This document shows, one piece after another, positions 16,607 through 55,931 of a DNA stretch of 58,236 nt; positions within the stretch are counted from its first letter, which is position 1, and every line of letters begins with the position of its first letter. The notes beneath the pieces were generated by a model. It had not been told where the DNA came from. It saw nothing but the letters and a program-made list of their open reading frames with translations, and did no database searches. Made by a program: the position numbers and the translations under genes. This stretch comes from an uncultured Candidatus Saccharibacteria bacterium (GTDB lineage: Bacteria > Patescibacteriota > WWE3 > UBA101185 > UBA10185), in assembly GCA_964387275.1 (NCBI GenBank), contig CAYLVW010000002.1:1-58236 (forward strand), in the 5' to 3' direction.

Positions 16607-17608
16607 TTAAGATTTTTTCTCAGTATCAAAATTTAGCACTCGTTTTATTATTATCATCATAACCATAAATACCGGTATGGCTAAGATTGCACCCAAAATG
16701 CCGAAAAAGTTACTAAATACCATAAGAACAAATAGGATCATTAGAGGGCCGTACCCGGATACAGATCCCATGATTCTTGGAACCAAAATATTGTTCTCTA
16801 ATTGCTGAATAATAAAAAATAACACAATAACAGCAAGACCTTTCAAAGGCTCTTGGGTAAAGGCAACTACTGCGGCTATAACTGCCGAAATCACAGGACC
16901 AATTACAGGTATAAACTCTAGGACCCCTGCTATAAGGCCTAGGGCCAAAGGGTAATCAACATCCAACAAATATAACCCCATAAAACTAAAGCCACCGATT
17001 ACCAACATCAAAATAAGCTGACCCTTTATCCAATTCCCTACCACGCTCTCAACTTCAACCAAAATAGATTCAACTGAATACTTATATTTATCAGAAAAAA
17101 AACCTATAAATCTCTTTTTAAGATTAGGTAGATCGAAAGAAACGTATAATGAAAACATAATTACTGTAATAAAGTTTGTTGCATTAGAAAAAACGCTTAC
17201 TGTAAGATTCAGGACATTATCCCCAAGTTGAGTTACTTGCGGAAGAATATTAGAAAGAGATAGTTCAAAGTTTTTCGGAACTGGAATGGCATTAAGAATC
17301 TCAGGCAAGGTTAAAAGTAGTTTTTGTATTTGAATAAAGACCGGTGGAAAAACTAATGTTGAAAAAACCACAATTGTAAAAAGCAGTATTGCGTAAGCGA
17401 TAATCACTGAGAGGGAGCGGCTAATCTTCAATCCCAGGAGTTTTTTACTTGAAAAAAATTGAACTAAACCTTCCAAAGCTATAACAACTAAAAATGAAAT
17501 TACGAGTAAGACAATCGTGTCAAATAATCTGTAGATCAAGTACCCACCTAAAATAATACCGAAAAACGCAAAAACACTTTTTACCGTTATTACTATTTGT
17601 TTATCCAT
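16607..17608 (-). CDS. AI-2E family transporter (PerM/UPF0118)
   Basis: Polytopic membrane protein with the FIPVIGPVISAV...NNILVPRIMG motif. Confidence 0.8.
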   Translation of the reverse strand: MDKQIVITVKSVFAFFGIILGGYLIYRLFDTIVLLVISFLVVIALEGLVQFFSSKKLLGLKISRSLSVIIAYAILLFTIVVFSTLVFPPVFIQIQKLLLTLPEILNAIPVPKNFELSLSNILPQVTQLGDNVLNLTVSVFSNATNFITVIMFSLYVSFDLPNLKKRFIGFFSDKYKYSVESILVEVESVVGNWIKGQLILMLVIGGFSFMGLYLLDVDYPLALGLIAGVLEFIPVIGPVISAVIAAVVAFTQEPLKGLAVIVLFFIIQQLENNILVPRIMGSVSGYGPLMILFVLMVFSNFFGILGAILAIPVFMVMMIIIKRVLNFDTEKKS

Positions 17609-17648
17609 ATTAAAGATATTTTAGGGGTTTACGACAAGAAAAACAACA

Positions 17649-18545
17649 TTACTTATCTAAAAAACTTAGAACGGTCTTCTCACAGCTATCGTAGTAATCA
17701 GTGGCAATATCAAACCAGTTTATTTCAGTGTTTCTTTTAAACCAAGTCAGTTGTCTTCTGATATAAGCGTGTGTATCAAATTTCGCCTGCAAGAGACCCA
17801 TATCAGCATCGACATGGCCTAGAATAACACTTCTAGCAGATTTATAAACCAAACCTGATAGATAATGTGATTTTGCGAATTTGGATTTTAATATTTCGCG
17901 GGTTTCCTTTAAGATAAGGTCCCAGTTTTCCTCCAACCACATATCAGAATGCTCGTAGAGATTCTCCCTATTTGAAGTAAGACCTATATACAGGCACTTA
18001 AAGTCTGGCACATAGACTGTGCTGTCTCGAGAAGCGGGGCTTACCGGTAACAAAAGTTTCTCAATGGATCTCACAAGTCTAACCTTATTCTTACTATCAA
18101 TTGAGCTATATGTTTCAGAAGAGAGATTTTTAAGCTGATTCTGCAAGTCATCCAGAGACTTTAAATTTAGGGATTCACGAAGCAATGTGTTGGTACTACC
18201 TGAATTTATTTGCACCCGCCCGGTTGCAGCATCCACATAAAACCCTGTTCCCCCTACTAATATAGGAATAGTGCCTACTGAAAATAGCTCCTTTAATTTT
18301 TTTTGTACCAGATTTTTGTAATCAAATGCGGAGAAACTCTCTGCGGGATTTACTAAGTCGTAACCAAAAATTCTACCCTGCACTACTTCACTCTTTTTTA
18401 ACTTCCCTGTTCCATAATCCAAACCTTTTACCATCTGCCTTGAATCTGCCGAAATGATCTCACCAGTAACTTTCGAAGACAATTTCTTAGCCAAAGAAGT
18501 TTTTCCTGTGCAAGTTGGGCCAACAATTACAATTAATTTATCCAT
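17649..18545 (-). CDS. miaA: tRNA dimethylallyltransferase MiaA
   Basis: P-loop IVGPTCTGKTS, the SADSRQ motif and TWFKR near the C-terminus. ATG 18545 (MDKLIVIV) is preferred and overlaps the miaB stop by 8 nt. Confidence 0.85.
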   Translation of the reverse strand: MDKLIVIVGPTCTGKTSLAKKLSSKVTGEIISADSRQMVKGLDYGTGKLKKSEVVQGRIFGYDLVNPAESFSAFDYKNLVQKKLKELFSVGTIPILVGGTGFYVDAATGRVQINSGSTNTLLRESLNLKSLDDLQNQLKNLSSETYSSIDSKNKVRLVRSIEKLLLPVSPASRDSTVYVPDFKCLYIGLTSNRENLYEHSDMWLEENWDLILKETREILKSKFAKSHYLSGLVYKSARSVILGHVDADMGLLQAKFDTHAYIRRQLTWFKRNTEINWFDIATDYYDSCEKTVLSFLDK

Positions 18546-37907: not shown

Positions 37908-37998
37908 GGAGGGATCGCATAGTTGGTCTAGTGCGCAGACCTGGAAAGTCTGTTGGGGAGTGATCCCCTCGCGGGTTCGAATCCCGCTCCCTCCGCCA
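37908..37998 (+). tRNA. tRNA-Ser(GGA), CCA encoded
   Basis: Acceptor GGAGGGA/TCCCTCC, anticodon loop CTGGAAA and a long variable arm GGGGAGTGATCCCC. Confidence 0.9.
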
Positions 37999-38191
37999 TG
38001 AATTTGTAATATGAAAGCACTGAATAGTTAGCCAACTTGAACAAAGTGAGACTTACTTTGAATTCTGAAAAATATCCTGCACCTTCCACCAAAATTCCAA
38101 AATATCTTCAGTTAACTGTACTGATAGTTTCTTTGGTTATACTTGTATCAATCCGTTAAATTAGAAGTTTTTGTTTTATAGCCGAACTCAG

Positions 38192-40051
38192 TTAGTATGT
38201 AAACGCTTTTATGTCTTTTTTTAATTCTTTAGCCACCTCTGCATCAAAGTCAGTTCTATAGGCTGGGTCATTAATTGTTTCTGCCACACCACCCCTGTGA
38301 GTGTTACCAACCACAACAAGCAGTTTGACCTCAGGACTTTGTGTTCTGATGGCAGCAACTTCTTGCTGATACATGCGTTCCCTGCAGATGCTATCTACCT
38401 GAATATACAATTGCCTTAACCTAGCTAGTTGCTCTAGTTGTTGCTTGGACTGTTCTGGGTTTGACATCAGTATCTGCATAAATCTTTGTATCCCTTGTAA
38501 GCTAGCCTTTTTATCTTCTTCTGTAAGTGTTTCATTACCCTGAATGTCAGCTATTAGTTTTTCGATCCCTCCTTCAGCAAAAATCCTTTGAGATGCGTCC
38601 AATAATCCATTTGTGAAGAAGAAATCTTCTCTATCTATCCCCAATCCCTTTGCTGAATTTTCCCATGCCTCCCATTTTGAAGTAGTATCCATTACTACCA
38701 AATGTACGCCATTACTTTCGTTTGGATACATTTCAGCTTGTTGCATGAATCGTGTTTCACTACTTAATACTGTCCAGGCGTTTAGTTTTGGGTCTGAGGC
38801 ATGTTCTACAATAACAAAATCTCCAGACTTCAAACCTGCTAGATATGCTTCAAATTGATGCTGAAACTCAGGAGTATTTATCAATCGTAAATGTTGCTCC
38901 CCAATAACTATATTCCCCTCAGTGCCTTCAGATACTTCAAAGCTTCCTGTGCTTCTTATCTGATCTGCTGTAGAAATATTTCCAATGGATTCATAATATT
39001 TGGCTGTGTCCTCCCAAGTCAAAGACAACCCACCAACGACCTCTTGTGCAGAAGTGGGATTTGGTTCTTTCGTTGCTTCAAACCACGACTTCCTTTTTAA
39101 CTCCATTAACTTACGTTGAGAAATTAGCGCGTGATGTGATTCCATCTTTCCTGAGGCCACTGCCTCATAGTCCTTAAGATAATTCAACATGTACATAATC
39201 CTCCCATGCCCAGTGTTTAACATGGCGGCTTCTGCTTGTTTAAGCTGTGCAGCAGCAGGTCTTGTAACTGCAGCTCGTTCCTCATCTGAAGCTATTATTT
39301 CAATAGGCATCACTCTCCCAGTCTCTAAATCAACTGCCCCATTTTCCATGATAATAGGAGTGTTAACTTCAATATATCTTGATTCCTGCATAAACACACC
39401 AACTGCTTCATCAAACTTTTCATCATCAGGAAATTCTCTAGCATTTAAAGTTTCCAACTGTGTAATAAGGCCTCTTATTTCTTCAAGCGATTGTGCTTTT
39501 TCACCAGAATAGTACACAACATTAGCTGCGCGCTCAGTGAGTTCCGCCTCTGTTTCAGTTAAATTTGCTATTTCTACACCCTGAATATCTACACTTTTAC
39601 CATATGTGGTCTCTCCTTCTGCTGCTACTTCAGGAGATATTGTAGTAACTTCTTCTGTGGAAGTAGTTTCCCCTCCTTTGTCTGGTTTCCGATCCTCATG
39701 TGTACCTACATCTAAAGTTTCTTTATCAACATCATTAAGTTCAGCTTTTAAGGCCTTTAAGTCACTTTCCTCTTCTGCAAAAAGATCTGGGTTTCCTGTA
39801 GCACCTTTGGCAGTTTCTAAGGCCGCCTCAGTAAAATCAACCACTGTTTCAGCTTTAGACGTTTCGGCATCAACTGCCCTTTCTGCTTCCTCAAAATTTT
39901 TAATACCTTCTATTGAGGCTTCAAATTCCACCCCTGAGATTTCAGGAACCTCTTCTGGTAGTGAAGTGCTAGGTTCTGAGTCGGATATTTCTTTTATTTC
40001 TTCTACTTCTGGTATAGCATCTAAAGCCCCACCTGTTCCCTCTAAGCTCAT
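38192..40051 (-). CDS. Orphan 619-aa protein with acidic disordered N-terminal third and a possible ChaN/Tiki-like C-terminal region
   Basis: Long ORF, G+C-richer than the flanks by eye. E/T/A-rich first ~180 aa. C-terminal motifs FVIVEHASDP and LLVVVGNTHRGG. Confidence 0.6.
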   Translation of the reverse strand: MSLEGTGGALDAIPEVEEIKEISDSEPSTSLPEEVPEISGVEFEASIEGIKNFEEAERAVDAETSKAETVVDFTEAALETAKGATGNPDLFAEEESDLKALKAELNDVDKETLDVGTHEDRKPDKGGETTSTEEVTTISPEVAAEGETTYGKSVDIQGVEIANLTETEAELTERAANVVYYSGEKAQSLEEIRGLITQLETLNAREFPDDEKFDEAVGVFMQESRYIEVNTPIIMENGAVDLETGRVMPIEIIASDEERAAVTRPAAAQLKQAEAAMLNTGHGRIMYMLNYLKDYEAVASGKMESHHALISQRKLMELKRKSWFEATKEPNPTSAQEVVGGLSLTWEDTAKYYESIGNISTADQIRSTGSFEVSEGTEGNIVIGEQHLRLINTPEFQHQFEAYLAGLKSGDFVIVEHASDPKLNAWTVLSSETRFMQQAEMYPNESNGVHLVVMDTTSKWEAWENSAKGLGIDREDFFFTNGLLDASQRIFAEGGIEKLIADIQGNETLTEEDKKASLQGIQRFMQILMSNPEQSKQQLEQLARLRQLYIQVDSICRERMYQQEVAAIRTQSPEVKLLVVVGNTHRGGVAETINDPAYRTDFDAEVAKELKKDIKAFTY

Positions 40052-40218
40052 TTTGTTAAATCTTCCAATTTTTGTCTCAGCTTTTCTAACTTATATTCTC
40101 CCGCTTTTTTATCTATCCTAATTAATATTTTCAAGGATTTTTGTCTAATACACTGCACTTTAGAAAATTTAGCTATCAGTTTCTTAACTTTCTCTACATT
40201 AATCCTCTGTATTGACAT
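40048..40218 (-). CDS. Small (56 aa) basic helical ORF, translationally coupled to 38192..40051; not in ORF track
   Basis: Hand translation gives MSIQRINVEKVKKLIAKFSKVQCIRQKSLKILIRIDKKAGEYKLEKLRQKLEDLTK. Its TGA overlaps the downstream ATG (ATGA). Confidence 0.45.
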   Translation of the reverse strand: MSIQRINVEKVKKLIAKFSKVQCIRQKSLKILIRIDKKAGEYKLEKLRQKLEDLTK

Positions 40219-40288
40219 TATTCTAAGTTTAACTTAATTATACTCATACTACACTATATTGAGTGGTATAAAAATTTCCAAATGTTCA

Positions 40289-40298
40289 CCCCCCCCCC
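40289..40298. repeat. Intergenic C10 homopolymer (G10 on the minus strand, upstream of the 40218 operon)
   Basis: Ten consecutive C residues, 71 nt upstream of the small-ORF start. Confidence 0.9.
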
Positions 40299-40364
40299 AC
40301 CGTCGGGTTGCATACTCAATCATTTCTTGTTTCTGAGTTATTTCTATAGATTTCCTGTTTTAAT

Positions 40365-40406: not shown

Positions 40407-40479
40407 GCATCTATAGCTCAACGGATAGAGCAGCAGCCTTCTAAGCTGTTGGTTGGGGGTTCAAATCCCTCTAGATGCG
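40407..40479 (+). tRNA. tRNA-Arg(TCT)
   Basis: Acceptor GCATCTA/TAGATGC and anticodon loop CTTCTAA. No encoded CCA. Confidence 0.9.
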
Positions 40480-40482
40480 CTC

Positions 40483-40555
40483 GGGCCTTTAGCTCAGTTG
40501 GTAGAGCAGCCGGCTCATAACCGGAATGTCACAGGTTCAAGCCCTGTAAGGCCCA
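40483..40555 (+). tRNA. tRNA with CAT anticodon (elongator Met, or Ile2 if lysidinylated)
   Basis: Acceptor GGGCCTT/AAGGCCC and anticodon loop CTCATAA. The G1:C72 pair argues against an initiator tRNA. Confidence 0.85.
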
Positions 40556-40556
40556 C

Positions 40557-43892: not shown

Positions 43893-44045
43893 ATGACAAA
43901 AAGAGTTTGGCAACCAAAAAAAGTTAAAAGGGTCAGAAAACACGGGTTCTTAAAAAGAATGTCCACTAAAAATGGAACAAAAGTTCTCAACAGAAGAAGA
44001 GCTAAAGGTAGAAAAAGATTAGCTATCAAACTAAACGCTAAATAA
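43893..44045 (+). CDS. rpmH: 50S ribosomal protein L34 (below ORF-track length cutoff)
   Basis: Hand translation gives [50 protein letters not shown], which matches the L34 pattern. Lies upstream of rnpA. Confidence 0.9.
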
Positions 44046-44111
44046 TCCTATTAAATCCTCAGCATATTTAGTGCCTAGATAGATAGGTACTGGTAGAATG
44101 GTTTCTGAAAT

Positions 44112-44459
44112 ATGCTAAAAAAACAAAACAGGCTGACCACTAGATATCAATTCAATATAACCCGTAAATTCGGTTATCATTTAGCCGGTAAATATATACA
44201 CATATACGTACTAGAACCCAGAAACTACAGAGGACCAAGCCAATTTGGTATAGTCGTATCAAATAAGTTAAGTAAAGCTGCAGTAGTAAGAAATAAAGTT
44301 AAAAGACGCATTAGAAACATAATTAAGAACGAATTTGCTAAAATTAATCCAAATCAATGGATAGTGTTACACTCAAAGCAACAAATTCTACAAGCAACTT
44401 ATGAAGAAATTGATACTGACATTGCTAAAATTTTACAAAAAATACCTTTCTCCCGGTAA
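44112..44459 (+). CDS. rnpA: RNase P protein component
   Basis: RNR-type motif [13 protein letters not shown]. 115 aa, with conserved synteny after rpmH. Confidence 0.85.
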
Positions 44460-44616
44460 TGCTGGTATAAAAGTTTGCCGTTTTGAACCAAGTTGCTCTA
44501 GATACTCATATGCTGCTATAGAAAAATATGGAATTCTTAAAGGAGGGTTGATGTCGATTTGGAGAATTTTAAGATGCAATCCTTTCTCAAAAGGCGGTTA
44601 TGACCCTGTTGAGTAA
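44401..44616 (+). CDS. yidD: Membrane protein insertion efficiency factor YidD
   Basis: YKKYLSP...[15 protein letters not shown]...GGYDPV signature. Confidence 0.85.
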
Positions 44617-44667
44617 AATTTGACCTATAAATATCCAGGATTTACAATACCGCAGAAAGGAAAAAGG

Positions 44668-45195
44668 ATGGGCATCAGATTCGTCCCAACTGACAGTCTT
44701 TATAACTATAGGCATAAACTTAATAGATCAAAAATCCCAGTAGAACTCCTTGCAGTTACTGCAGGTGTCTCATACGACCCTAAGAGGTTGTGCAGAAAAT
44801 TTTTCCCATCACTAGAACCAGGCAGTAATGGACATGGTGCTTTATATACATGGAAGTATATTGAATTGGCTGCAGCTATTAGAGCTAAAGACCTTGTAAG
44901 AGCGGATCTGCAAGACCCTGAAATGCAGGAACTTACATCTGTATTGTATGAGCTTCCAATGACAATGGACATTGTTGCTGAGGAAGCGATTGAAGCACTA
45001 AGATGGCTAGAACTTGCATGTTTGGATGAGAATAATAGATCTAGGGATTTAACGCAGGCTATTAGAAAGGCAAAGGGTGTTTACAATGACCCAATAGGGC
45101 AAAAGACTATGGATACTATCCAGATTTTTTTGGAAAATTTTTACTCAGTACAGGGAAACGTGGATAGAACTGTGGAGTTGTGTCTTTTTTCTTAG
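44668..45195 (+). CDS. Orphan protein inserted between yidD and yidC
   Basis: Track ORF starts at TTG 44620. ATG 44668 is preceded by GAAAGGAAAAAGG. No TM or recognisable motif. G+C-richer than its neighbours by eye. Confidence 0.5.
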   Translation: MGIRFVPTDSLYNYRHKLNRSKIPVELLAVTAGVSYDPKRLCRKFFPSLEPGSNGHGALYTWKYIELAAAIRAKDLVRADLQDPEMQELTSVLYELPMTMDIVAEEAIEALRWLELACLDENNRSRDLTQAIRKAKGVYNDPIGQKTMDTIQIFLENFYSVQGNVDRTVELCLFS

Positions 45196-45212
45196 TGTTA
45201 CTGAATTGATTC

Positions 45213-45243
45213 GGCGGCTGCCTTATTTTATAAGGCAGCCGCC
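45213..45243 (+). terminator. Perfect 13-bp GC-rich hairpin after the orphan ORF (no clear U-tract)
   Basis: GGCGGCTGCCTTA / TAAGGCAGCCGCC with a TTTTA loop. Confidence 0.5.
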
Positions 45244-45340
45244 TCTCTACATCAAAAACATTGCTTACAAAACCCAATAATAGTAAACTAGCGCGAGCTA
45301 TAATTTCGTTATCGAGTAAAAACTTGATAACATATCATAT

Positions 45341-46129
45341 ATGTTTGCAAACATTTGGAACACAACGTTAATCAACCCAATACTAAATTCCCTAGTATTA
45401 TTCTATAAATACACTGGAAATCTAGGCGTAGCAATAATACTTTTAACACTCCTTATAAGACTCATACTTTACCCTGTAATGTTACCTTCCCTTAAGACTA
45501 TGAAAAAACAAAGAGACCTACAACCAGAACTGGACAAGTTAAAAAAGAAGTATAGCTATGATAAAAGGAAATTAGCAGAAGAACAAATGAAACTTTTCAA
45601 GGAACATGGTATATCTCCAGGCCTTGGGTGTTTTACTCAACTCGGAACAATAGTTGTAATTATAGCCCTGTATCAAGTAATATCAGGGTTTGCATTACAC
45701 TTTAATGTCGATGCAACAAATGCATCTCTATACTTTGATTTTCTAAAACTTTCTACTAATGAGGTCATAAATACTTCATTCGGATATCTAAACCTGAGCA
45801 AACCCGACCCCTATTTCATACTAGCCATACTTTCAGGTCTACTTCAATTTGTACAGTCTAAAATGACCTTTCCCTATGTTAATCTGGCAGAAAAAGTGGC
45901 AGAGAAAACACCTGACAAAACTGACGATCTAGCTTATAATATGCAGCAACAGATGTTGTATACCATGCCAGTTATGAACTTTATAATTGGTATATCCTTG
46001 CCCTCAGGTGTTGTCTTATACATACTGGTTACTACAATATTCTCAATTGTCCAAACTTACTTAGTAACAGGCCTTGGAGGGGTAACTCCTTGGATAAAGA
46101 AACTAGGCCTCGAAAAGATCATTAAATAA
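45341..46129 (+). CDS. yidC: Membrane protein insertase YidC (short form)
   Basis: 262 aa. Conserved LPSLKTMKKQRDLQPELDKLKKKY helical-hairpin region and five TM helices. Confidence 0.85.
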   Translation: MFANIWNTTLINPILNSLVLFYKYTGNLGVAIILLTLLIRLILYPVMLPSLKTMKKQRDLQPELDKLKKKYSYDKRKLAEEQMKLFKEHGISPGLGCFTQLGTIVVIIALYQVISGFALHFNVDATNASLYFDFLKLSTNEVINTSFGYLNLSKPDPYFILAILSGLLQFVQSKMTFPYVNLAEKVAEKTPDKTDDLAYNMQQQMLYTMPVMNFIIGISLPSGVVLYILVTTIFSIVQTYLVTGLGGVTPWIKKLGLEKIIK

Positions 46130-46130
46130 T

Positions 46131-46622
46131 ATGAATAAAATAGAAACAATAAAACCTATAATTGATGAGTTATTAAGATTCTATAGTGTAAGGTACTCAC
46201 TAAGCATAAACGAAATAGATGAAAATTTGCTATCTGCAGATATACAAGGGGATAACCTTAGCTTCTTAATAGGCTTCAGAGGTGAGACTTTAGATGCCCT
46301 ACAAACTATTATTAATCAAATCATATTTAGAAGACTTGGAGAATGGAATCAAGTAATAGTAGATATTAACGGATATAAGAAACAAAAAAATGAAAAAATA
46401 ATCGAAATTACAAAAGGTTACATTGATAGAGTAAGGTTTACACAAAAACCAATTGAAATGCCAAATATGAACCCAGCGGAGCGAAGACAAGTACATACAT
46501 TTATATCAGAGTACCAAGATATCGTTTCAGAAAGTACTGGGGAAGGGCTAAATAGAAGAGTTGTACTTAAACTGAAACACGAACCCAACAACTTAGAAAC
46601 AGAAGTTGTGGAGGAAAATTAG
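46131..46622 (+). CDS. jag: Jag/KhpB-like RNA-binding protein (KH + R3H)
   Basis: C-terminal R3H motif MNPAERRQVHTF. Conserved position after yidC. Confidence 0.8.
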   Translation: MNKIETIKPIIDELLRFYSVRYSLSINEIDENLLSADIQGDNLSFLIGFRGETLDALQTIINQIIFRRLGEWNQVIVDINGYKKQKNEKIIEITKGYIDRVRFTQKPIEMPNMNPAERRQVHTFISEYQDIVSESTGEGLNRRVVLKLKHEPNNLETEVVEEN

Positions 46623-46625
46623 CCC

Positions 46626-47735
46626 ATGATGTTTACCTGCCTTCAAGAAAATCTTGAAAAAGGTTTAAACACAGTCTACAAAGCGGTTCCCACAAAAAGC
46701 TCATTGCCGATTCTAAATAACATCCTAATAAAAACTGAGAATGGCCGATTAAAATTGTCTGCTACCAACATGGAAACAGCAATAACAACATTTGTTGGCG
46801 CTTCTATAGATAAAGAAGGGTCCATTACTATACCTGCAAAATTAATTAGGGAATTTGTTAGTAATTTGTCTCAAAACACTCTTAGCGGCAATCTTTTAAA
46901 TGAGGTGCTACATGTAACTTCAGATAAAACAAAAACAAAATTTGTCGGAACTGCTGTTGATGAATACCCAAATTTACCAGCTTTTAACGATAAAACTAAA
47001 CACATTACAGTAAACCCAAAGCAATTTTTAGAAGCAGTATCGAAAGTGTCCTATTCTGCAAGTACCGACGAATCACGACCGGTTTTTACAGGAGTATATG
47101 TAAATTATAGTGAGGGTGCACTTACTCTTGCAGCTTCAGACGGATTTAGGCTATCTGAAACCTCCCTAGAAGCGAAAGGGGATGTAGAAACTTTCACAAT
47201 AATTGTGCCCTCAAAAGTCTTACTAGAAGTAGCAAGAATTTTTGCAGACTCCACAGAAGATTTAAAAATAGGCCATAGTGAAAATGAAAACCTAACATTG
47301 TTTTTTGCAGATGACACTCTTGTTAGCACAAGAATTATTGATGGGCAGTATCCTGACTATAAGAGGATTGTTCCTAAAGATTCCACATTGTCCGCGGTGT
47401 TCCCTGCTATGGATCTTCTCGAAGCAGTAAAGCTCTCAAATATTTTCGCTAAAGAAGTTAATAATGTTGTGAAACTAAGAATAGATCCTGAAGGTTATAT
47501 AAATGTAGTCACAAATGCACAAGAAACTGGAGACCATTTAAGCCAAATCCAATCAGAGGTACTTGGGGAGTCAGTAGAAATAGCTTTTAATTCTAAGTAT
47601 CTTCTAGACTTTCTAAACAATAACAAGTCAGAGCGTATAGTGTTAAAGGCAAACGGATCTTTAGCTCCCTGTATATTCACACCTGAAGGGGAAATGACGT
47701 TTTATCATATCGTAATGCCAATGCAACTACAGTAG
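46626..47735 (+). CDS. dnaN: DNA polymerase III beta sliding clamp
   Basis: 369 aa. N-terminus F.C.QE.L..GL..V..AV....SLPIL.NILI and the three-domain length. Confidence 0.9.
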   Translation: MMFTCLQENLEKGLNTVYKAVPTKSSLPILNNILIKTENGRLKLSATNMETAITTFVGASIDKEGSITIPAKLIREFVSNLSQNTLSGNLLNEVLHVTSDKTKTKFVGTAVDEYPNLPAFNDKTKHITVNPKQFLEAVSKVSYSASTDESRPVFTGVYVNYSEGALTLAASDGFRLSETSLEAKGDVETFTIIVPSKVLLEVARIFADSTEDLKIGHSENENLTLFFADDTLVSTRIIDGQYPDYKRIVPKDSTLSAVFPAMDLLEAVKLSNIFAKEVNNVVKLRIDPEGYINVVTNAQETGDHLSQIQSEVLGESVEIAFNSKYLLDFLNNNKSERIVLKANGSLAPCIFTPEGEMTFYHIVMPMQLQ

Positions 47736-47789: not shown

Positions 47790-50285
47790 CTACCTCAAAT
47801 CGCTAAGATCATTTAGTGGTTTACTGCCTGTAGGATCTCCTGCAGAACGATTTGACTCAGAACTAGTAGAGTTTGAACCGTTGCCACTAACCATCCTTTG
47901 ATTATTAGTATCATAAGAGTTGTTAGATACATTTGAACTACCCACACTCTGATTGGGATTATTCCCAGCAACAGGGTACTGTCTAGATATTTGAGGCTGC
48001 AAAGGAGATACCACATTATTCTGATAGTTTTGAACCTGACTTGCTACCGGATTAACTCTGGGGGCATCTACCACCACCCCAGAGCTTATAGTGGATGTAG
48101 TGCTAGACGGCAGCGAAGGTGGAGAAGACCTAACATGAGGGTTGTTATTTCCGCCAGGTACTATTGTAGATCCTGGGTAAGCACTAGGCGCTCTTTGAAC
48201 CGTAGAATTGTTTCTTTCACCAAACTTACGAAGCTCAGGTGGTATAGAATCTCCCACAGGAGTCGCGCTAGAACCAGGAGTTGCTACGCCACCAACTGTG
48301 TAGGGTTGATTGTTGTTGGGTTGAGTTATACTCTGGGAACTTTGTGTATGTACTTGAGGTGCCATTTCTGAATTTGTAGGCTGTTTTGTTACAAAATTCT
48401 GAGTAGGTGTTTTCTGTAAGGAAGCTCCTGCTTGATAGGATTGCTGGTTTTGAGACGCAGCTTGTTTAGCGGCTTTGATTATGCCTTCCTGCTGCATTTT
48501 AAGTATCTCAGCTGGGTTTGTTGTTACAAGCCTGTGTTCGGCATCTGAGGCAACAACTTTTATAGCTATGTGGTTTGCACCAGCAAAAAATAACCCCTCG
48601 CCTCTATCGGCTGCGAGCAAAAGTCTCTTCTCACCCTCAGACAAATAAAAAGTCTCAGCAACTTTTTCAATAGCTGCCGGGTGTTGTTTTAACAAAACCT
48701 GAATAGAAGAGTTTGTAACAATAGCTTTACCATACTCCGATGCTAAGAAGTCATCAACGTCTTGAGAAATAGTAGTTAAACCAAGGTAGTACTTTCTCGC
48801 TCGTTTAGCTACGCCATAAATAAATCTGGCGCTATCGTCATTTTGCATTAAATACCAAGCCTCCTCGACTATAAAAATCCTTTTCTTCAAATCTTTCTTG
48901 ATCTTGGTCCAAACAAAATCCAAAATAATATAGAAAGCAACGGGCCTAAGAACATCCTGTAAGTTCTTTGTAGAGAAAACTGTCATTTTACTATCCAACT
49001 TAATGGTAGACTGAGAGTCAAATATACCTGCCATTGAACCCTTAATATACTTCTCAAGTCTCTCTGCCATACTTCTAGCCTCACGTTCTTCAGCTCCAAG
49101 CAATACCTTGTATAAATCTTCCATGACAGGAGGCTCCATGGTTCTCTGAGTTTCAGGGTCTGGGGTAATGCCCTTTATTCTATAGGTCTCTATCAATGCC
49201 CTGTCTAATATAGCTTCCTCGGTAGCACTTAAGTCACCCAGCATTAGCTTAAAAAGTGTATGTAGTGATAATAACTTCTGACCAAGCTCATTCTCACCCT
49301 CAGTTGCTATTCCAGATAAATCAAAGGGGTTTATTTTTTGAGGAGAGTTTGCAGAAAAACTAATATAGTTTCCACCAACAGCCTCACATAAAGCCTTGTA
49401 TTCCTCCTCCACGTCTAAAATCAAAACCTCCGCACCAAACACCATAGACCTTAGAGCTTCTAATTTCACAAAGTAGGATTTACCAGAACCGGATTTAGCA
49501 AAAACCACAGTATTGGCATTCTCCATGGAAAAACGATCAAAAATAACTAAGGAACCGTTGTGTCTATTTATTCCATATAAAATACCATCGTCCATAGTAA
49601 GGTCCGAAGAGGTAAAAGGGAAAGTGGTTGCCAAACTTGTAGTATCCATATTCCTCGTAATCATCAGCTTATCTAGTGATGCAGGTATAGTGCTTTGAAA
49701 AGCATCCTCCATTTGTAATGAAGCTGTTTTAGATATCAATAGTAATGACCCTAGCGTTGATTCGAGTTTTGATGCAACTGTCTGCAATTCCTCTAAACTC
49801 TCAGCAGGAATTGTAATATAGAAAGAAAACTGGAAAAACTTCTCAACACCTTTCACAAGTTGCTCTTGCAAAGCCTTTGCGTCGTCTAAAGCTATGCTCA
49901 CAGAAGGATCACTCAGTCTACCCTTCTCTCTATTAGACATCATGGTGGCTTCCATCTCGGTAATTTTTTTTCTAAGATCGTCCATGACTCCTTTTGCTTT
50001 CACGGGATAGTAGAAAAACGAAATATCCAGGGAATGGTCAAAGTTTATTATTGGTGACAACCAGTTGGCACCTACAAATCTTGGATATCCTGAAACAAAA
50101 ATAGTTTTGTAGTAAGTGTTCCCAATTTTTATATGACTAAAATCCACCTCTATGGCAGATGGTGCAATAATATCTCTGACATTAAGCATTCCTTTGGCTA
50201 GGTTTTCCGCAGCTGTCAAATCTTGGGTTGGTTTAATGTCTTTGTCATTTTTCTTACTAAATAAGGGTAGTGTAGGAAATGCCAT
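47790..50285 (-). CDS. virB4: VirB4/TrbE/PrgJ-type secretion ATPase with ~230-aa Q/N/S/P-rich C-terminal tail
   Basis: Gram-positive-type VirB4 N-domain (IGNTYYKTIFVSGYPRFV), Walker A FAKSGSGKSYF and Walker B-like IFIVEEAWYL. The low-complexity tail begins around MQQEGIIKAAK. Confidence 0.8.
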   Translation of the reverse strand: MAFPTLPLFSKKNDKDIKPTQDLTAAENLAKGMLNVRDIIAPSAIEVDFSHIKIGNTYYKTIFVSGYPRFVGANWLSPIINFDHSLDISFFYYPVKAKGVMDDLRKKITEMEATMMSNREKGRLSDPSVSIALDDAKALQEQLVKGVEKFFQFSFYITIPAESLEELQTVASKLESTLGSLLLISKTASLQMEDAFQSTIPASLDKLMITRNMDTTSLATTFPFTSSDLTMDDGILYGINRHNGSLVIFDRFSMENANTVVFAKSGSGKSYFVKLEALRSMVFGAEVLILDVEEEYKALCEAVGGNYISFSANSPQKINPFDLSGIATEGENELGQKLLSLHTLFKLMLGDLSATEEAILDRALIETYRIKGITPDPETQRTMEPPVMEDLYKVLLGAEEREARSMAERLEKYIKGSMAGIFDSQSTIKLDSKMTVFSTKNLQDVLRPVAFYIILDFVWTKIKKDLKKRIFIVEEAWYLMQNDDSARFIYGVAKRARKYYLGLTTISQDVDDFLASEYGKAIVTNSSIQVLLKQHPAAIEKVAETFYLSEGEKRLLLAADRGEGLFFAGANHIAIKVVASDAEHRLVTTNPAEILKMQQEGIIKAAKQAASQNQQSYQAGASLQKTPTQNFVTKQPTNSEMAPQVHTQSSQSITQPNNNQPYTVGGVATPGSSATPVGDSIPPELRKFGERNNSTVQRAPSAYPGSTIVPGGNNNPHVRSSPPSLPSSTTSTISSGVVVDAPRVNPVASQVQNYQNNVVSPLQPQISRQYPVAGNNPNQSVGSSNVSNNSYDTNNQRMVSGNGSNSTSSESNRSAGDPTGSKPLNDLSDLR

Positions 50286-50990
50286 TTATAAGTCCTCCAA
50301 AACCGCAGGATTTACTATTGCGGTCTTGTAATCATCTATATTAGTTCTAATTCTCTGGCCATGAACACTGCTTGGGTTATATATATCAAAGTATAACTCA
50401 ACTAGTTCTTGGGTTGTCATCATCCTCGCCTTAACTCCTATCCTACCAAACTCACCTATTAAGTGTTCAACTTTTGGTACTAATTCCACCTCAGCGTCTT
50501 TTACAACCTTATTTACATCAACTTCAACTCTTTTATGCCCTACTCCAAAAAGTCTATTTATAAACTCGAACGGACTAGACCCCAACTCCTTGATAACAGA
50601 GCTTCCTGAAGGAATAACCACATAGAACTTCTTATCCAGTACTTCATTATTTTGAATTACATCTTGGATAAATTTTCTGTATGACTCAATCTGGTATTTC
50701 ATCAATGGGTCAGTTATTTTTGACTCCATTCGTTGTACTTTTTCAATATATTTGGTTATGTCTAACTTCTTTGATCTTAAAACAACTTGTATAGGAAAGG
50801 TTATGGAATTTAGCAACATTGAAAATGCTGCGATTATAGCATCCTGTTCCATTTCAGAAAGAAGATCAAAATTTACTGCAGTTGTCTGTAAAACACTACA
50901 AACGTTACCGTTTTTTAAAATCACAAAATTATTCTTTATATCCTGTATATCTAAATGGTTTTGAGTAGAATCTTTAATAATTTCTGACAT
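50286..50990 (-). CDS. Stand-alone paralogue of the VirB4 N-terminal domain (no ATPase motifs)
   Basis: The block order LDIQDI..LKNGNV..VNF..FPIQVVL...FYVVIP...TTQELVELYFDIYNP parallels LNVRDI..IKIGNT..PRF..LDISFFY...FYITIP...SLQMEDAFQSTIP in the 831-aa ORF. 0-nt gap to virB4. Confidence 0.5.
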   Translation of the reverse strand: MSEIIKDSTQNHLDIQDIKNNFVILKNGNVCSVLQTTAVNFDLLSEMEQDAIIAAFSMLLNSITFPIQVVLRSKKLDITKYIEKVQRMESKITDPLMKYQIESYRKFIQDVIQNNEVLDKKFYVVIPSGSSVIKELGSSPFEFINRLFGVGHKRVEVDVNKVVKDAEVELVPKVEHLIGEFGRIGVKARMMTTQELVELYFDIYNPSSVHGQRIRTNIDDYKTAIVNPAVLEDL

Positions 50991-50991
50991 A

Positions 50992-52758
50992 TTAAGCCTG
51001 CTTTCCCTGGAAAACTAAAGGAGCAACTATATCACCTTTAACTTCTACAGAAATTATATCAAAGGTTTGGCTAACTTTATTATATTGACCAACTTCCACC
51101 GAGTATAAACCATTCGGCAGAGGTGAGATCAGTGAAAATTGCCCCAGTGCATTTGTCTTTGTAGCGCGTCTTGCTTCACCTTTATTGTTTTTAACAATTA
51201 AAACTACCCCCTCTATAGCAACACCCTTAGAATCCAGAACAACTCCAGATAAAATGTTTGGTTTTGTCGGAGAAACAGGAAGGCTTGAGCTAGATACCTG
51301 AGATTTTACAGAAACGGGAGCAACAGATATAGTCTCCTTCTCCTTTAGCCTATCCTGTAAATCAACCAACTGCTTTTGTAAAGCTGAGTACTCTGTCTCA
51401 GTACGTGTCTTGGAATCCTCTAAGTCCCTGATAGTTCTTTGAATTTTCTGCTTTTCTTCTGCTTGATCCGGGTTTTTTGTGAACAACTGGGATCTTAACT
51501 TCTCTATTTCATCTTGAAGCTTCTTATTTTGTGTTTTTACTGTCTCTATTACAGCATTTGCTTCTATATCAAAATCCTCCTTAGCTTGAGGTTGCTGTGA
51601 AGCTCCCAACTCAATAGTTACACCCTTAGAACTTTCTTGTAGAGGTTTTGTGCTTGTAGCAAAAGCTGGAGGTGTTGAGGTGGAATCATTGGGAACTGTA
51701 CTTAGCTTTTTAGCTACTGTCTTATCAGAAGTTGTTATACCTTCTTCTTTTTTAATTTTATCTATTAGGGATTTTAATTGAGTTGTTTTATCAGAAATCT
51801 CTTTGTCTATATCTACCTCTTCAATAGTTTGAATAATTCGTTCCCCTCTAATAGGCAAAACAATTTCACCATGAGTAGCAAGTAAATTAGTGAATTTTCT
51901 ACCAGTGTGAGTATCGTGTGTAACGATATCATTGGAACCAATCTTACTACGATCTATTAATTTAAACTCTTTCTCTTCTATTTTCTTTTTTACGGGTTTT
52001 ATATCGTCAGTTGGCCGCCTGGTTTTTTTAATAGGAACAATGGTTGTATCGTATACTTTTTGAGTTTCTACAGGTATAGAGGGTGTTTGTTGTGTAGATG
52101 TCGGGGCAGTAGGTATAACCGGGGTAACAAGCTCTGTAGGTAAAGTGTCGGTGCTAGAAACATTTGCAGGTGCTATGGCAGGAGCATCGGGAATAAATTG
52201 AGGGGTAGTGTCTTCAACCGTTGCAACTGCAACAGGAGACGAATAAATAGGCATAGGTGCAGAGTATGCATCTTTTACCTTTCTAATAAAGTCATCTTCT
52301 CGTATGTCTAGCTTATCAATAGGACCCGACTCATGCTGGTGGTCTAAGTACTCTTCAAGCTTCCTCCTACTTGAAGTTGGTGCGAGAGTAATAAGCTCGC
52401 GCTTTAACACATCCATATTTTGGTAAAAAAACACTGATGGGACAACAGCTTCTTTTCTCCACACCTTTTGAGTTGGAGAATAGACAGCTCGAAAAAAAGC
52501 CACAACCCACTGATCCATGCCACGATCCTCAATAGGAACAAAGGCAAAAGCAAGACCAAGAATGGTAAAGAAAATCGCAAAAGGCCATTTAAAAAACCCA
52601 GCAACATAAGTAGCACTTACAAAAGCTAAACCCCCAAAAGCCATAACATAGGCAAACTGTCTCATCGTAAGCTCACCAATAATCTTAAACTCAACATCCA
52701 TGATGTTTTGAGGTACAGCGTGTTGTTTATTTACTGATTGAATATCGTTAATGGGCAT
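50992..52758 (-). CDS. PrgI/VirB3-like membrane hairpin fused to P/T-rich linker, coiled coil and carboxypeptidase-regulatory-like beta-sandwich
   Basis: N-terminus ..FKIIGELTMRQFAYV.. plus two adjacent TM helices. Coiled coil at about aa 395-470. C-terminus ILSGVVLDSKGVAIEGVVLIV..NALGQFSL..LPNGLYSVEV. Confidence 0.6.
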   Translation of the reverse strand: MPINDIQSVNKQHAVPQNIMDVEFKIIGELTMRQFAYVMAFGGLAFVSATYVAGFFKWPFAIFFTILGLAFAFVPIEDRGMDQWVVAFFRAVYSPTQKVWRKEAVVPSVFFYQNMDVLKRELITLAPTSSRRKLEEYLDHQHESGPIDKLDIREDDFIRKVKDAYSAPMPIYSSPVAVATVEDTTPQFIPDAPAIAPANVSSTDTLPTELVTPVIPTAPTSTQQTPSIPVETQKVYDTTIVPIKKTRRPTDDIKPVKKKIEEKEFKLIDRSKIGSNDIVTHDTHTGRKFTNLLATHGEIVLPIRGERIIQTIEEVDIDKEISDKTTQLKSLIDKIKKEEGITTSDKTVAKKLSTVPNDSTSTPPAFATSTKPLQESSKGVTIELGASQQPQAKEDFDIEANAVIETVKTQNKKLQDEIEKLRSQLFTKNPDQAEEKQKIQRTIRDLEDSKTRTETEYSALQKQLVDLQDRLKEKETISVAPVSVKSQVSSSSLPVSPTKPNILSGVVLDSKGVAIEGVVLIVKNNKGEARRATKTNALGQFSLISPLPNGLYSVEVGQYNKVSQTFDIISVEVKGDIVAPLVFQGKQA

Positions 52759-52790: not shown

Positions 52791-55700
52791 TTAATTAGCA
52801 AAATTAATCTGAAATTTAGAATCTGCGCTTATAGTATCAGTTGTGGTTACAACATTGTCCTTGCTAATAATGTTAGTGCTTACGGTTCCAATAGTGATGC
52901 CAAACGGAGGACTAAAAGTAAACACTCTACTGTCATCAGACGTTCCAGGTTGTTTTTGCCAAACTAAGGAATAATTTTCTGTGCCTTTCTCTATAAAAGC
53001 TGACTTAGTTAGATCATAAGATATGGTAAAAATAACTCTTTGTGTTGGCTCAATCTTTAGTAAATAAGCGAAATATTTGTAATTTCCTTCTACTACCTCA
53101 ACTATATCTTCCAGTACATCGTCGTCAAATACATTATTAGTGTTTACCTTGGCCCCAGTGAGTTTAGTGTCGTTTGGAACATAAATTCTTACGTAGTTTG
53201 TATAAGGCCCACTAGGCCAAGAACTATCCGTGCCAGTATGTTCATAGGTTAGAGCTAATTCTCCCCGTAACACCCCATCTCTGGTTTGAGAAGTTACTTT
53301 GTAGTCCATGAAATTTTTAACGTAATAATTTGCTTTGGTACCGCCAACATTTGAATTAACAACATACAAATAGTCTTTATCATAAGCTCTCATCGACCCA
53401 TCCCAACCGTACTTGTTAAGTAACCCACCAACCCTGGTATTTGGTATATAAACTAAAACATCTTTTGACAAAAATAGGGATGAGATCTCATTAAATAACA
53501 ACGGCATATCTTTTTGCTCTAAAGAAAACACTCTTTCAAGTAATTTACTACCAAGGACAGTCAGAAACGACTTCTTTTGGTTAGAGCCATCTTTGTAATT
53601 AAACTCACTGTGAAACTGAGCCCTCTCATACATATTCGCGGCACTGATTTCCTCATTATAGGCAGTTAAAAATACAGGCCCAGTAACCTTAAGAAGACTC
53701 TCAGCAAATTTTAAATCTACACCAATAACACCATCAAAATTCTGACCGGTAGCAGCAAAAAATAATTTAAGTATTTTCTCAGAACTTTTCCTAAAATCTG
53801 GATCCCAGTTTGAATTTCGAATATAAGCTCTATCCTCTTTTAATATTTCAGCCAAGGTAGTGTCTGGCTCAAACTTGATGTCCTTTACATCCAGCTGACC
53901 GTCTGGATTATAAATATCGTCTATGTTTAGCTCTTTGATTTTACCTTTATCTAAAGTTAGAGTAGCATAAGATCCTATGAAACCTCCGGTAGGTCTTATC
54001 TCATTAGAGTTTTGAAAAAGCACTAAGTACTTCTTCGGAGAGTCAGTACCTAGAAGTTTTGGTACTTCGGAAGCTACCTGAAAAACATCTTCCAGATAAA
54101 AAGATAAGTCCTGTAATGACTGCTTATAAGTCTCAACATTATCTTTAAGATTATCGGGAAGATACGTGGAATCTATAGTACTGGATCTTGTTAACGCAAA
54201 CTGCAAGCTTTCTTTAGCAGAAATAAAACTACTCTCAACATTAGAAAATTCTTCCTCAGATAAGTAATTCGGGTTGTTAGGCTGTACGGCATCCCAAACC
54301 TGAGTATATGGATAAGCACCCTTGGAAAAACTATATGAAAATCTCGAAAAATACGTCAACGACGAGAACAAATCGCTAAGAGAGCTGTACATCTTTGCTT
54401 TACCTGAAATAGAAAACAACCAGTCTATTTTATTTAAGGACTTCTGCGCCTTAGAAAAATATGCATAAGCATCCCTTGCACTTTGCAACGAAGCCTCAGA
54501 ATCAAGTTTTGTGAGGGCCTCTCTAACCCTTGCCATTTCGGTAACAGCACGTCCCGCATTTATAAAAGTTTGGGCGACGGGTATAACTACAAACACAACA
54601 CCAACAAATAACAATGTTATAAATATTAGATACAATGGACCAAATAACTTCGGCAACTTCCGTAGGTTAGTAGAATTGTTACTAAGTGGGAGAACTTTTG
54701 GGGGAGATTGTACAGAAGAAGTCGTATTTAAACTTATGGTTTTTTTGGTAAACAAACCTCCTAATGAGCTTTTGATTAGTGGTTGTTTTGGCAACATGTT
54801 CGGCTTTTCCGGAATATTAGAATCCACTATATCTACTAGTGAGGATACAGCTCCAACAGAAGAAGGTGTTAGAGAAGATTTTTGGGCAAAATCTACAGCT
54901 TTTTGCTTTTTCAAATCATCAATTAGTTTGCCGGGTTTAAAAGAATTTTCATTTACATCATAACCACCCCATTTTAATGTCTTTATGACCCCTTCTCTAA
55001 AAGAAGTCTTCACATCCCAACCTAAATCTTCAAGGGAAGAAGTGTCTGGAATATTTGGAGCAGTAGAAAGCTCTCTATATGGAGGCTTAAAATTAACCTT
55101 TAGCTCTCTGTTAGCCAAACCCTTAATTAAGAAGGTAATTTCCAAAGGTGAATAAGAATCAACATCTACTAACGGATAAATTTTTGTCTCTGTGTTTGGA
55201 TTAAATAAGGCTTTTAAAATACCACTAACAGCATCTGTTATATAAAGGTAATACTGTTTCTCAGTACCATCTCCATAGATTGTAAGATCATGACCATCAG
55301 TCACATCTCTTAAAATCCTACCAAGCTCCCCCGTAGACTCGTAATCCATTCTGGGACCAAATACTTCCGGAACCCTTACAATACGTACATTGGTGTTATT
55401 TTTCTTGTAATACTCCCAGACTAAAGCCTCAGCAAATCTTTTCGCCTCTGTTTGAGAATACTGCTTTTCTTCAATAGCAGAATCTCCAAAATACTTTTTT
55501 AAATCTATTTGAGATATCATGCCTTGATAAACGTCTATGGTTGAGACAAGTAGAAATTTGGCTAAGGATCTATTTGCCAAATCCAGCAAATTTTTAGTAC
55601 CTAAAGCATTTGTTAGTAAGGAGTCTAAGTTTATATCAATCTTGCTATATAGATACTCCTCAAGCCCAGCTAAATGAATAATGTAGTCAACGCTCTCTAT

Positions 55701-55931
55701 CTCCTCGGGTAAACCCTTACTTATATCAGCGTTGTAAACGGCAAATTTAGGGTTATTAATAAGGTGGCTGATAAAATTTTCTTTGCCTGTTTTGAAATTA
55801 TCGACAACAACAACCCTTGCGTCTTTTTGCAAAAGGGTCTCACAAAGATGTGAACCTATAAAGCCTGCGCCACCTGCAATTAAAATAGTAGGGGCAAGAG
55901 CATTTTTTTTAATAACGCTCTTTTTGGGCAT
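52791..55931 (-). CDS. Fusion protein: N-terminal UXS/RmlB-like SDR domain - TM helix - C-terminal DUF4012 domain
   Basis: ILIAGGAGFIGSHL..VVVDNFKTGK, a TM helix LYLIFITLLFVGVVFVVIPV, and the DUF4012 hallmark NSNEIRPTGGFIGSYATLTL. Confidence 0.75.
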   Translation of the reverse strand: MPKKSVIKKNALAPTILIAGGAGFIGSHLCETLLQKDARVVVVDNFKTGKENFISHLINNPKFAVYNADISKGLPEEIESVDYIIHLAGLEEYLYSKIDINLDSLLTNALGTKNLLDLANRSLAKFLLVSTIDVYQGMISQIDLKKYFGDSAIEEKQYSQTEAKRFAEALVWEYYKKNNTNVRIVRVPEVFGPRMDYESTGELGRILRDVTDGHDLTIYGDGTEKQYYLYITDAVSGILKALFNPNTETKIYPLVDVDSYSPLEITFLIKGLANRELKVNFKPPYRELSTAPNIPDTSSLEDLGWDVKTSFREGVIKTLKWGGYDVNENSFKPGKLIDDLKKQKAVDFAQKSSLTPSSVGAVSSLVDIVDSNIPEKPNMLPKQPLIKSSLGGLFTKKTISLNTTSSVQSPPKVLPLSNNSTNLRKLPKLFGPLYLIFITLLFVGVVFVVIPVAQTFINAGRAVTEMARVREALTKLDSEASLQSARDAYAYFSKAQKSLNKIDWLFSISGKAKMYSSLSDLFSSLTYFSRFSYSFSKGAYPYTQVWDAVQPNNPNYLSEEEFSNVESSFISAKESLQFALTRSSTIDSTYLPDNLKDNVETYKQSLQDLSFYLEDVFQVASEVPKLLGTDSPKKYLVLFQNSNEIRPTGGFIGSYATLTLDKGKIKELNIDDIYNPDGQLDVKDIKFEPDTTLAEILKEDRAYIRNSNWDPDFRKSSEKILKLFFAATGQNFDGVIGVDLKFAESLLKVTGPVFLTAYNEEISAANMYERAQFHSEFNYKDGSNQKKSFLTVLGSKLLERVFSLEQKDMPLLFNEISSLFLSKDVLVYIPNTRVGGLLNKYGWDGSMRAYDKDYLYVVNSNVGGTKANYYVKNFMDYKVTSQTRDGVLRGELALTYEHTGTDSSWPSGPYTNYVRIYVPNDTKLTGAKVNTNNVFDDDVLEDIVEVVEGNYKYFAYLLKIEPTQRVIFTISYDLTKSAFIEKGTENYSLVWQKQPGTSDDSRVFTFSPPFGITIGTVSTNIISKDNVVTTTDTISADSKFQINFAN

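Follow-up and report, generated by a model that had tools for sequence, protein, structure and literature searches.

What does a host-dependent bacterium do with a compact set of type IV secretion genes that sit in its chromosome without the usual companions of conjugation? The question is raised by a 58,236-nucleotide (nt) stretch of DNA from an uncultured bacterium of the Patescibacteria class WWE3 (assembly GCA_964387275.1, contig CAYLVW010000002.1; hereafter the window), in which three adjacent genes encode proteins related to PrgI/VirB3, TrsD and VirB4. A preliminary description made from the sequence had seen in this module a stripped-down, core-genome-embedded apparatus resembling a type IV secretion system (T4SS), possibly serving something other than plasmid transfer and possibly working together with a neighbouring DUF4012 protein. 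We consider it very likely that the three genes constitute the cytoplasmic-membrane energising core of the Patescibacteria-type T4SS, a chromosomal derivative of the conjugation machinery of the monoderm MPF-FATA class put to use in host interaction. The module is not part of a conjugative element, and plasmid transfer is very probably not what it is for; that suggestion of the preliminary description is also the published view of Patescibacteria T4SSs (PMC12102498, PMC10633639, PMC12857230).

The system itself is already known. VirB4 was found in 2,417 of 3,035 Patescibacteria genomes, and its sequences there make up one monophyletic group inside MPF-FATA. Of the components associated with it, TrsD is the commonest and PrgI/VirB3 the next; relaxases are nearly lacking, dnaA, dnaN, rnpA and rpmH are frequently adjacent, and VirB2-like pilins and VirB6 near virB4 are frequent, not universal (Quinonero-Coronel et al. 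2025, PMC12102498). In Southlakia epibionticum, whose T4SS has no recognisable coupling protein or relaxase, transposon sequencing (Tn-seq) placed the T4SS genes among those essential to epibiotic growth (Wang et al. 2023, PMC10633639). No T4SS had been shown before to be indispensable for the growth of the cell that carries it (PMC10633639, PMC12857230). Furthermore, a 2025 FEMS review summarises the Patescibacteria T4SS and speculates on a pilus-like conduit to the host (PMC12857230). Because these papers already cover the system, the core inference of the preliminary description amounts to published consensus, and the example in the window is not new: it is a clean WWE3 case that adds nothing fundamental and illustrates that a T4SS cluster can be split across the chromosome. 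The wider interest of the Patescibacteria T4SS is that few other molecular entry points exist to the life of these ultra-small, host-dependent bacteria.

The three proteins of the module

The module consists of three minus-strand open reading frames (ORFs) separated by 1 nt (PrgI/TrsD) and 0 nt (TrsD/VirB4), as first described, and its coordinates also confirm the flanks named at the outset, dnaN on one side and an SDR-DUF4012 gene on the other (Table 1). The prgI gene lies directly upstream of trsD-virB4, an order kept in related loci and typical of PrgI/VirB3. The trsD stop codon, TAA, abuts the virB4 ATG directly and in the same frame. Programmed read-through from trsD into virB4, suggested by this in-frame TAA, was rejected because the frame relation of the two genes is not conserved in relatives; tblastn coordinates imply that they overlap in different frames in the related loci L001 and L002. 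A scan of 47.5–56.3 kb for promoters and terminators returned sites no more frequently than in shuffled sequence and is therefore uninformative on operon structure.

The 831-amino-acid (aa) product is a VirB4-type ATPase. It passes the NCBIfam model NF045971 (‘VirB4-like conjugal transfer ATPase, CD1110 family’) with 362.5 bits against a cut-off of 325, covering positions 177–734 of 752, and matches P-loop_TraG of Pfam at E 1.6e-32. Moreover, the solved VirB4 C-terminal ATPase domain of Thermoanaerobacter pseudethanolicus (PDB 4AG5) aligns over its whole chain with residues 226–588 (E 5e-52), and Walker A is conserved between the two. The HerA-type DUF87 family matches residues 261–415 only (E 1.2e-7), with the VirB4 models far stronger. 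A HerA/FtsK-type ATPase, the identity that the preliminary description had set against VirB4, is thus ruled out by the stronger VirB4 models, the CD1110 cut-off and 4AG5. The earlier assignment to VirB4 and its two Walker motifs stand; the N-domain credited to this ORF is present in its distal part only, from profile position 177 onward, its proximal part being the separate 234-aa ORF. The Walker B motif reads EEAW, unlike the canonical DEAW of 4AG5. The same EEAW occurs in all 120 WWE3 homologs, and among 150 wider VirB4 relatives (the best of an exhaustive search over 50%-identity representatives) DE is found in 110 and EE in four, those closest to WWE3. The low-complexity tail varies between 38 and 297 aa among homologs, with ends that recur as semi-conserved motifs (..DLSDLR, ..QGxISxLR, ..YKPIGxSAPLI).

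The 234-aa ORF supplies the missing piece of VirB4. It has no match in the local Pfam copy, and its match to the NCBIfam TrsD/TraD model (NF041427; E 1.5e-9) reaches 38 bits against a cut-off of 200, far enough below that the relationship is distant, one of homology and not of equivalog membership. It does match the extreme N-terminus of VirB4 profiles: in VirB4_plasma (894 positions), it covers 101–236 (E 3.4e-11) and the 831-aa ORF 284–892, and in VirB4_CagE the two cover 19–123 and 238–724, respectively. A precomputed PF26593 TraC-like match is recorded on an identical 234-aa product in locus L078. The AlphaFold2 model of the protein is of moderate confidence (pLDDT 65), and its top 14 Foldseek matches in the PDB are all TrwK/VirB4 of plasmid R388, E-values thereafter falling to background; the TrsD-family profile had no match among PDB sequences, the fold comparison alone being successful. 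Furthermore, in 60 of the 150 best VirB4 relatives a TrsD domain is fused to the VirB4 N-terminus, for example at residues 4–206 of P0361 (E 1e-56). The consecutive, non-overlapping profile coverage, the fold matches to TrwK/VirB4 and the fused forms therefore establish that the TrsD-like and 831-aa proteins together are a split VirB4, an arrangement known from TrsD/TrsE of pGO1, in agreement with the initial impression that the smaller ORF resembles a VirB4 N-domain. A duplicated N-domain was rejected in favour of the split, because BLASTP finds no significant similarity between the two ORFs (E 0.15).

The first protein, of 588 aa, scores above the Pfam PrgI gathering threshold (PF12666; 34.8 vs 27 bits) over residues 15–95. 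Its hydropathy peaks at residues 35–53 and 58–76, and AlphaFold2 places a hairpin of two helices at 32–51 and 57–73 with pLDDT above 90, so that the proposed PrgI/VirB3-like identity with two adjacent transmembrane (TM) helices is borne out. Members of the PrgI family are usually small, roughly 100–150 aa; the protein in the window has about four to five times that size. In the AlphaFold2 model, helices continue to residue 165 and are followed by a disordered T/P-rich linker (166–305), a helix (312–338), a coiled coil (392–476) and a confident beta-sandwich (500–588; pLDDT above 90). Pfam recognises a CarboxypepD_reg domain at this C-terminus (36.3 bits), and the Foldseek matches of the beta-sandwich in the PDB are CnaB2, carboxypeptidase D regulatory and transthyretin-like domains (E 5e-5 to 1e-3). 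The long architecture is shared by relatives: the protein measures 395–748 aa across 39 related loci, of which 37 keep a conserved mid motif around residues 278–335 and 36 the C-terminal domain, and 469–753 aa among the best 120 homologs listed. In the accepted topology of VirB3 both ends are cytoplasmic, and the extension behind the two-helix hairpin would therefore be cytoplasmic as well; its fold type is more typical of surface proteins. Were the topology reversed, the extension would stand out from the secretion machine as a surface-exposed stalk or adhesin.

Table 1. Coordinates of the module, its notable segments and its flanking genes in the window
Feature	Position	Strand	Basis or remark
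PrgI/VirB3-like membrane protein with long C-terminal extension	50992-52758	minus	588 aa; Pfam PrgI, CarboxypepD_reg, AlphaFold2
TM hairpin of PrgI domain, residues 35-76	52531-52656	minus	hydropathy, AlphaFold2
PrgI-like extension, ~420 aa, residues 166-588	50995-52263	minus	
Transthyretin/CnaB-like beta-sandwich, PrgI-like residues 500-588	50995-51261	minus	AlphaFold2, Foldseek
TrsD-like protein, free-standing proximal VirB4 N-terminal domain	50286-50990	minus	234 aa; NCBIfam, Foldseek
VirB4-type T4SS ATPase: distal N-domain, P-loop ATPase, low-complexity tail	47790-50285	minus	831 aa; NCBIfam, Pfam, 4AG5
Walker A AKSGSGKS, VirB4 residues 263-270	49476-49499	minus	aligned to AKPGAGKS of 4AG5
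Walker B IFIVEEAW, VirB4 residues 470-477	48855-48878	minus	aligned to VLVVDEAW of 4AG5
S/N/P/Q-rich C-terminal tail, VirB4 residues 601-831	47793-48485	minus	composition
SDR-DUF4012 fusion gene	52791-55931	same as prgI	ends 32 nt upstream of prgI
dnaN	46626-47735		downstream flank, converging on the virB4 side

Conservation of the module and the location of its partners

Among the best 120 VirB4 homologs listed, every named one belongs to a Patescibacteria-group assembly, in most cases with the label candidate division WWE3, and the best are 76–100% identical to the window over the core. The arrangement prgI-trsD-virB4 converging on dnaN-jag-yidC-yidD-rnpA recurs in nearly all of 28 GTDB species-representative loci, and this conserved housekeeping synteny supports the earlier view that the module is embedded in the core genome. 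One of these relatives, L021, carries at 9212–17704 an additional gene between virB4 and dnaN, whose 2,830-aa product resembles, by eye, a cyclic beta-1,2-glucan synthase or glycosyl phosphorylase.

On the upstream side, 24 of the 28 loci are informative, 17 of a ‘full’ and seven of a ‘split’ type. In the full type, a VirB6-like gene directly precedes prgI. Its ~460-aa product has a signal peptide, an extracytoplasmic domain in the N-terminal part and five TM helices; next to this gene, on the side away from prgI, come a divergent gene for a ~1,100-aa membrane protein, one for a ~160-aa protein and four to five T4SS_pilin genes (PF18895). In the split type, the SDR-DUF4012 gene stands upstream of prgI instead; this type comprises seven GTDB loci (including L004, L013, L018, L021, L024 and L026), and the window and its near relatives L030 and L073 belong to it as well. 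A neighbour-joining tree of VirB4 has full loci on all basal branches and the DUF4012 type in one or two derived groups, which marks the DUF4012 arrangement as derived. The initial description of the apparatus as ‘stripped-down’ is thus an overstatement: pilins, the ~1,100-aa protein and the VirB6-like protein, which are lacking near virB4 within the window, accompany prgI in 17 of the 24 informative relatives. The synteny that the preliminary description had proposed for comparison is conserved as far as prgI-trsD-virB4 beside dnaN is concerned, and its DUF4012 part in seven of the 24 loci only.

The large protein of these clusters deserves separate mention. It spans ~1,100–1,400 aa (L002 2771–6007, with homologs in L007, L009, L010, L011, L041 and L044), and has two TM helices, a Cys-rich C-terminal region and no Pfam match. 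In the T4SS clusters of WWE3 its gene and the VirB6-like gene are always divergent, and the protein is a candidate for a novel T4SS component. An M23-like reading of a C-terminal HxH motif in the relatives' accessory proteins, made by eye and without hidden Markov model (HMM) support, is not claimed.

The complementary half of the system can be found on its own. A metagenome scan with the VirB6-like profile returned at least nine loci that hold pilins, the ~1,100-aa protein and the VirB6-like protein, with no prgI, trsD or virB4 within 10 kb. The accessory cluster of L044, in which smpB follows the VirB6-like gene, lies on a Joint Genome Institute (JGI) contig of 117,446 bp, and the longest contig of VirB4 P0056 and PrgI P0225, whose context is of the DUF4012 type, measures exactly 117,446 bp; the L066 cluster lies on a 130,720-bp contig, matching the longest contig of PrgI P0206. 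Judged by these identical sizes, both halves appear to lie on one contig, more than 10 kb apart, in at least two split-type relatives. Because the partner genes stand beside prgI or elsewhere in relatives, the three genes are probably one part of a larger, dispersed system, and the accessory genes that belong to the window's module would lie outside the 58 kb or have been lost, loss being unlikely. The 72-kb contig of L030 showed only GroES/GroEL in the sequence beyond the window's extent. In two split-type clusters (L044 3778–5715 and L041 3341–5338), one pilin gene is enlarged to ~650 aa, with the T4SS_pilin domain at its C-terminus (572–639) and a large N-terminal region of no assigned function.

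Pfam searches with each of the window's 58 ORFs of at least 100 aa detected no relaxase, type IV coupling protein (T4CP), TrbL/VirB6, T4SS_pilin, SLT/CHAP or integrase, in line with the absences listed in the preliminary description (relaxase, coupling ATPase, VirB6-like protein, lytic enzyme, pilin and integrase). The gaps between genes contain five tRNAs and rpmH and no pilin-like ORF, and no match was obtained when the window was searched by tblastn with the pilins, the ~1,100-aa protein and the VirB6-like protein of relatives. Moreover, the window has no compositional island and the module no att-like context; where a conjugative element would place a contiguous relaxase, T4CP and integrase or att site, the 58 kb hold none of these and the flanks are conserved housekeeping synteny.

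The core genes are also under strong constraint. Across the GTDB loci, median aa identity to the window is 75% for the VirB4 core, 66% for TrsD, 56% for YidC, 49% for DnaN and 42% for RnpA. Pairwise comparison with L030, at 84–88% nucleotide identity, gives 238 nt changes and 2 aa changes in the VirB4 core (600 residues), 68 and 0 in TrsD, 56 and 2 in the N-terminal 165 residues of PrgI, and 169 and 10 in DnaN. The core T4SS genes are thus under tighter constraint than dnaN, which fits the essentiality seen in Saccharibacteria, and none of the relatives examined has an interruption in any of the three frames.

Likely function and competing explanations

How such a core might work can be outlined by analogy with solved T4SS inner-membrane complexes. 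The PrgI/VirB3-like protein would act as a two-helix membrane anchor for the split ATPase formed by TrsD and VirB4, as in R388, and VirB3 together with the VirB4 N-domain would provide the membrane docking site of the VirB4 oligomer. A VirB6-like polytopic protein and VirB2-like pilins, encoded elsewhere in the window's sub-lineage, would make up a channel or pilus, and ATP hydrolysis would power both its assembly and the transport through it. The system would serve to interact with a host cell, through export or uptake of macromolecules or through contact by a pilus, and not plasmid conjugation. A PrgI-anchored split ATPase that powers a VirB6-like/pilin channel for host interaction seems to us the most likely account, in which we infer that the complex assembles, that this genome encodes the partners elsewhere, and what is transported.

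Known systems resemble the module to different degrees. With the T4SS of the Patescibacteria clade (PMC12102498; Southlakia SEML1_0006-0019), as far as the available descriptions go, it shares a VirB4, TrsD and PrgI/VirB3 encoded together on the chromosome by dnaN, rnpA and rpmH, the lack of a relaxase or coupling protein near the module, and relatives that carry VirB2-like pilin arrays; it differs from these systems in that the pilins and VirB6-like gene are non-adjacent, PrgI is long and Walker B reads EE. The TrsC-TrsD-TrsE genes of the staphylococcal plasmids pGO1/pSK41, which represent a subclass of MPF-FATA, have the same order of VirB3-like protein, TrsD and VirB4 ATPase, whereas their system is conjugative, with a relaxase, a T4CP and no pilins. 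PrgI-PrgJ of Enterococcus plasmid pCF10 share the Pfam PrgI family, a virB3-like gene upstream of virB4 and a monoderm envelope. Unlike the module, pCF10 has a single unsplit VirB4 in PrgJ and a small PrgI, and it encodes a relaxase, a T4CP, the adhesin PrgB and the hydrolase PrgK. TrwM/VirB3-TrwK/VirB4 of R388 (PDB 7O41, 8RTB, 8RTD) provide the structural template for the docking of VirB3 and the VirB4 N-domain: the model of the TrsD-like protein superposes on TrwK over ~189 columns (probability 1.0, E 4e-4), although sequence identity is ~12–13%, and R388 is a diderm system with an outer-membrane core complex and VirB4 in one polypeptide.

Several points weigh against the reading of the module as the energising core of a host-directed T4SS. 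To our knowledge, no cultivated WWE3 bacterium exists. The window contains no VirB6-like, pilin or wall-hydrolase partner gene, and the partners postulated here derive from relatives. In those relatives, the VirB6-like and ~1,100-aa proteins have no Pfam match even at E 0.1–1, the VirB6-like profile has no match among PDB sequences, and the protein is putatively labelled ‘VirB6-like’ for its topology and gene position; the placement of both halves on one contig in split relatives derives from identical contig sizes in bp. The competence of the ATPase is assumed, because Walker B carries Glu where Asp is canonical. MPF-FATA membership of this VirB4 is likewise a presumption drawn from the HMM match and PMC12102498, and the essentiality data come from another class, Saccharimonadia (PMC10633639).

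Several rival explanations were considered. That PrgI, TrsD and VirB4 form an autonomous minimal apparatus, possibly together with the SDR-DUF4012 protein and without a VirB6 channel or pilins, would account for the lack of any further T4SS gene in 58 kb and for the DUF4012 gene, which shares the strand of prgI and ends 32 nt before it with no convincing terminator in the interval; the DUF4012-prgI order also recurs in eight loci (six of the GTDB split loci named above, L030 and L073). We regard it as highly improbable. We know of no T4SS that works with VirB3 and VirB4 alone, the full cluster occupies the basal VirB4 branches, and at least one DUF4012-type relative appears to keep a pilin/VirB6-like cluster on the same 117,446-bp contig. 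In the 17 GTDB full loci and in the full loci of metagenomes, the DUF4012 gene is not adjacent and the VirB6-like gene takes its place; around virB4, the full loci have no DUF4012 homolog over 10 kb. The association with DUF4012 is therefore a lineage-specific adjacency of the derived sub-lineage. The protein combines a cytoplasmic SDR epimerase domain, one TM helix (435–453) and an external DUF4012 domain, and its gene is divergently paired with a Wzz-like gene, which points to a role in envelope polysaccharide synthesis as the more economical reading; SDR and GT2 genes elsewhere in the window likewise suggest glycopolymer synthesis. Co-transcription of the DUF4012 gene with prgI is possible and not informative. 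The proposed cooperation of the DUF4012 protein with the module is not supported.

Import of DNA or nucleotides from the host, as by archaeal Ced or Helicobacter ComB, would serve the nucleotide auxotrophy of Patescibacteria, and it has in its favour a weak but significant HMM similarity of VirB4 to archaeal CedB (E 6e-12) and CedD and the absence from the window of the relaxase and T4CP needed for DNA export; T4SS loci of the class ABY1 co-localise with comF, recG and radA (PMC12102498), and uptake from the host has been speculated upon (PMC12857230). Yet CedB is matched with 44.9 bits, its cut-off being 700, whereas the CD1110 cut-off of VirB4 is passed, no competence or recombination genes lie beside the module in the window or in WWE3 loci, and transport direction is not readable from sequence; we rate this specific purpose as unlikely, though a serious alternative. 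Also unlikely, though it would retain the energising core, is the reading that WWE3 has remodelled it: VirB3 would have become a tripartite protein of ~400–750 aa (conserved motif, coiled coil and beta-sandwich behind the VirB3 module) whose extension could act as a cytoplasmic docking platform for a substrate or partner, in place of the missing coupling protein or VirB8 and perhaps together with the motifs of the VirB4 tail, and the motor would run with a Glu-Glu Walker B. The long PrgI, the EE Walker B and the details of the VirB4 tail do not appear in the available parts of PMC12102498, PMC10633639 and PMC12857230, and the WWE3-specific long VirB3 and EE Walker B could guide structural or biochemical constructs. 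Finally, the module could be what is left of an integrated conjugative element in decay, with the genes for relaxase, coupling protein and channel already gone, as the nesting of its VirB4 among conjugative MPF-FATA types (HMM; PMC12102498) and the local presence of only three T4SS genes might suggest. Purifying selection as extreme as that on TrsD and the VirB4 core rules out a decaying element; together with the position beside dnaN, fixed across the class, the lack of an integrase, att-like context or compositional island, and the intact frames of all relatives examined, it leaves this explanation with next to no probability.

Other features of the window

The rest of the window consists of housekeeping and envelope genes. 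They encode DnaG, RpoD, RnpA, YidD, YidC, Jag and DnaN, GT2 glycosyltransferases and SDR epimerases, MltG, FtsEX along with a PcsB-like hydrolase, a GH1 glycosidase, a Kef-type antiporter, and MiaA, MiaB, MetG, RmuC and Nth. At 43893–47735, rpmH-rnpA-yidD, a 191-aa ORF of no assigned family (44620–45195) and yidC-jag-dnaN follow one another on one strand, with no dnaA between them, and the cumulative GC skew of the window has no clear origin-like turn.

A 2.3-kb segment at 38005–40362, between tRNA-Ser (37908–37998) and tRNA-Arg/tRNA-Met (40407–40556), is missing from L030 and has a GC content of ~0.39 against ~0.35 nearby; it looks like a strain-specific insertion beside tRNA genes, and it holds a minus-strand acidic ORF of 619 aa (38192–40051) with no Pfam or NCBIfam match. 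Near the left end of the window, a nearly pure C tract of ~110 nt (50–160) in a genome of ~35% GC may be an assembly or sequencing artefact. At 5238–8544, four consecutive plus-strand ORFs (281, 195, 194 and 289 aa) have no Pfam match, and the first and last of them resemble each other by eye.

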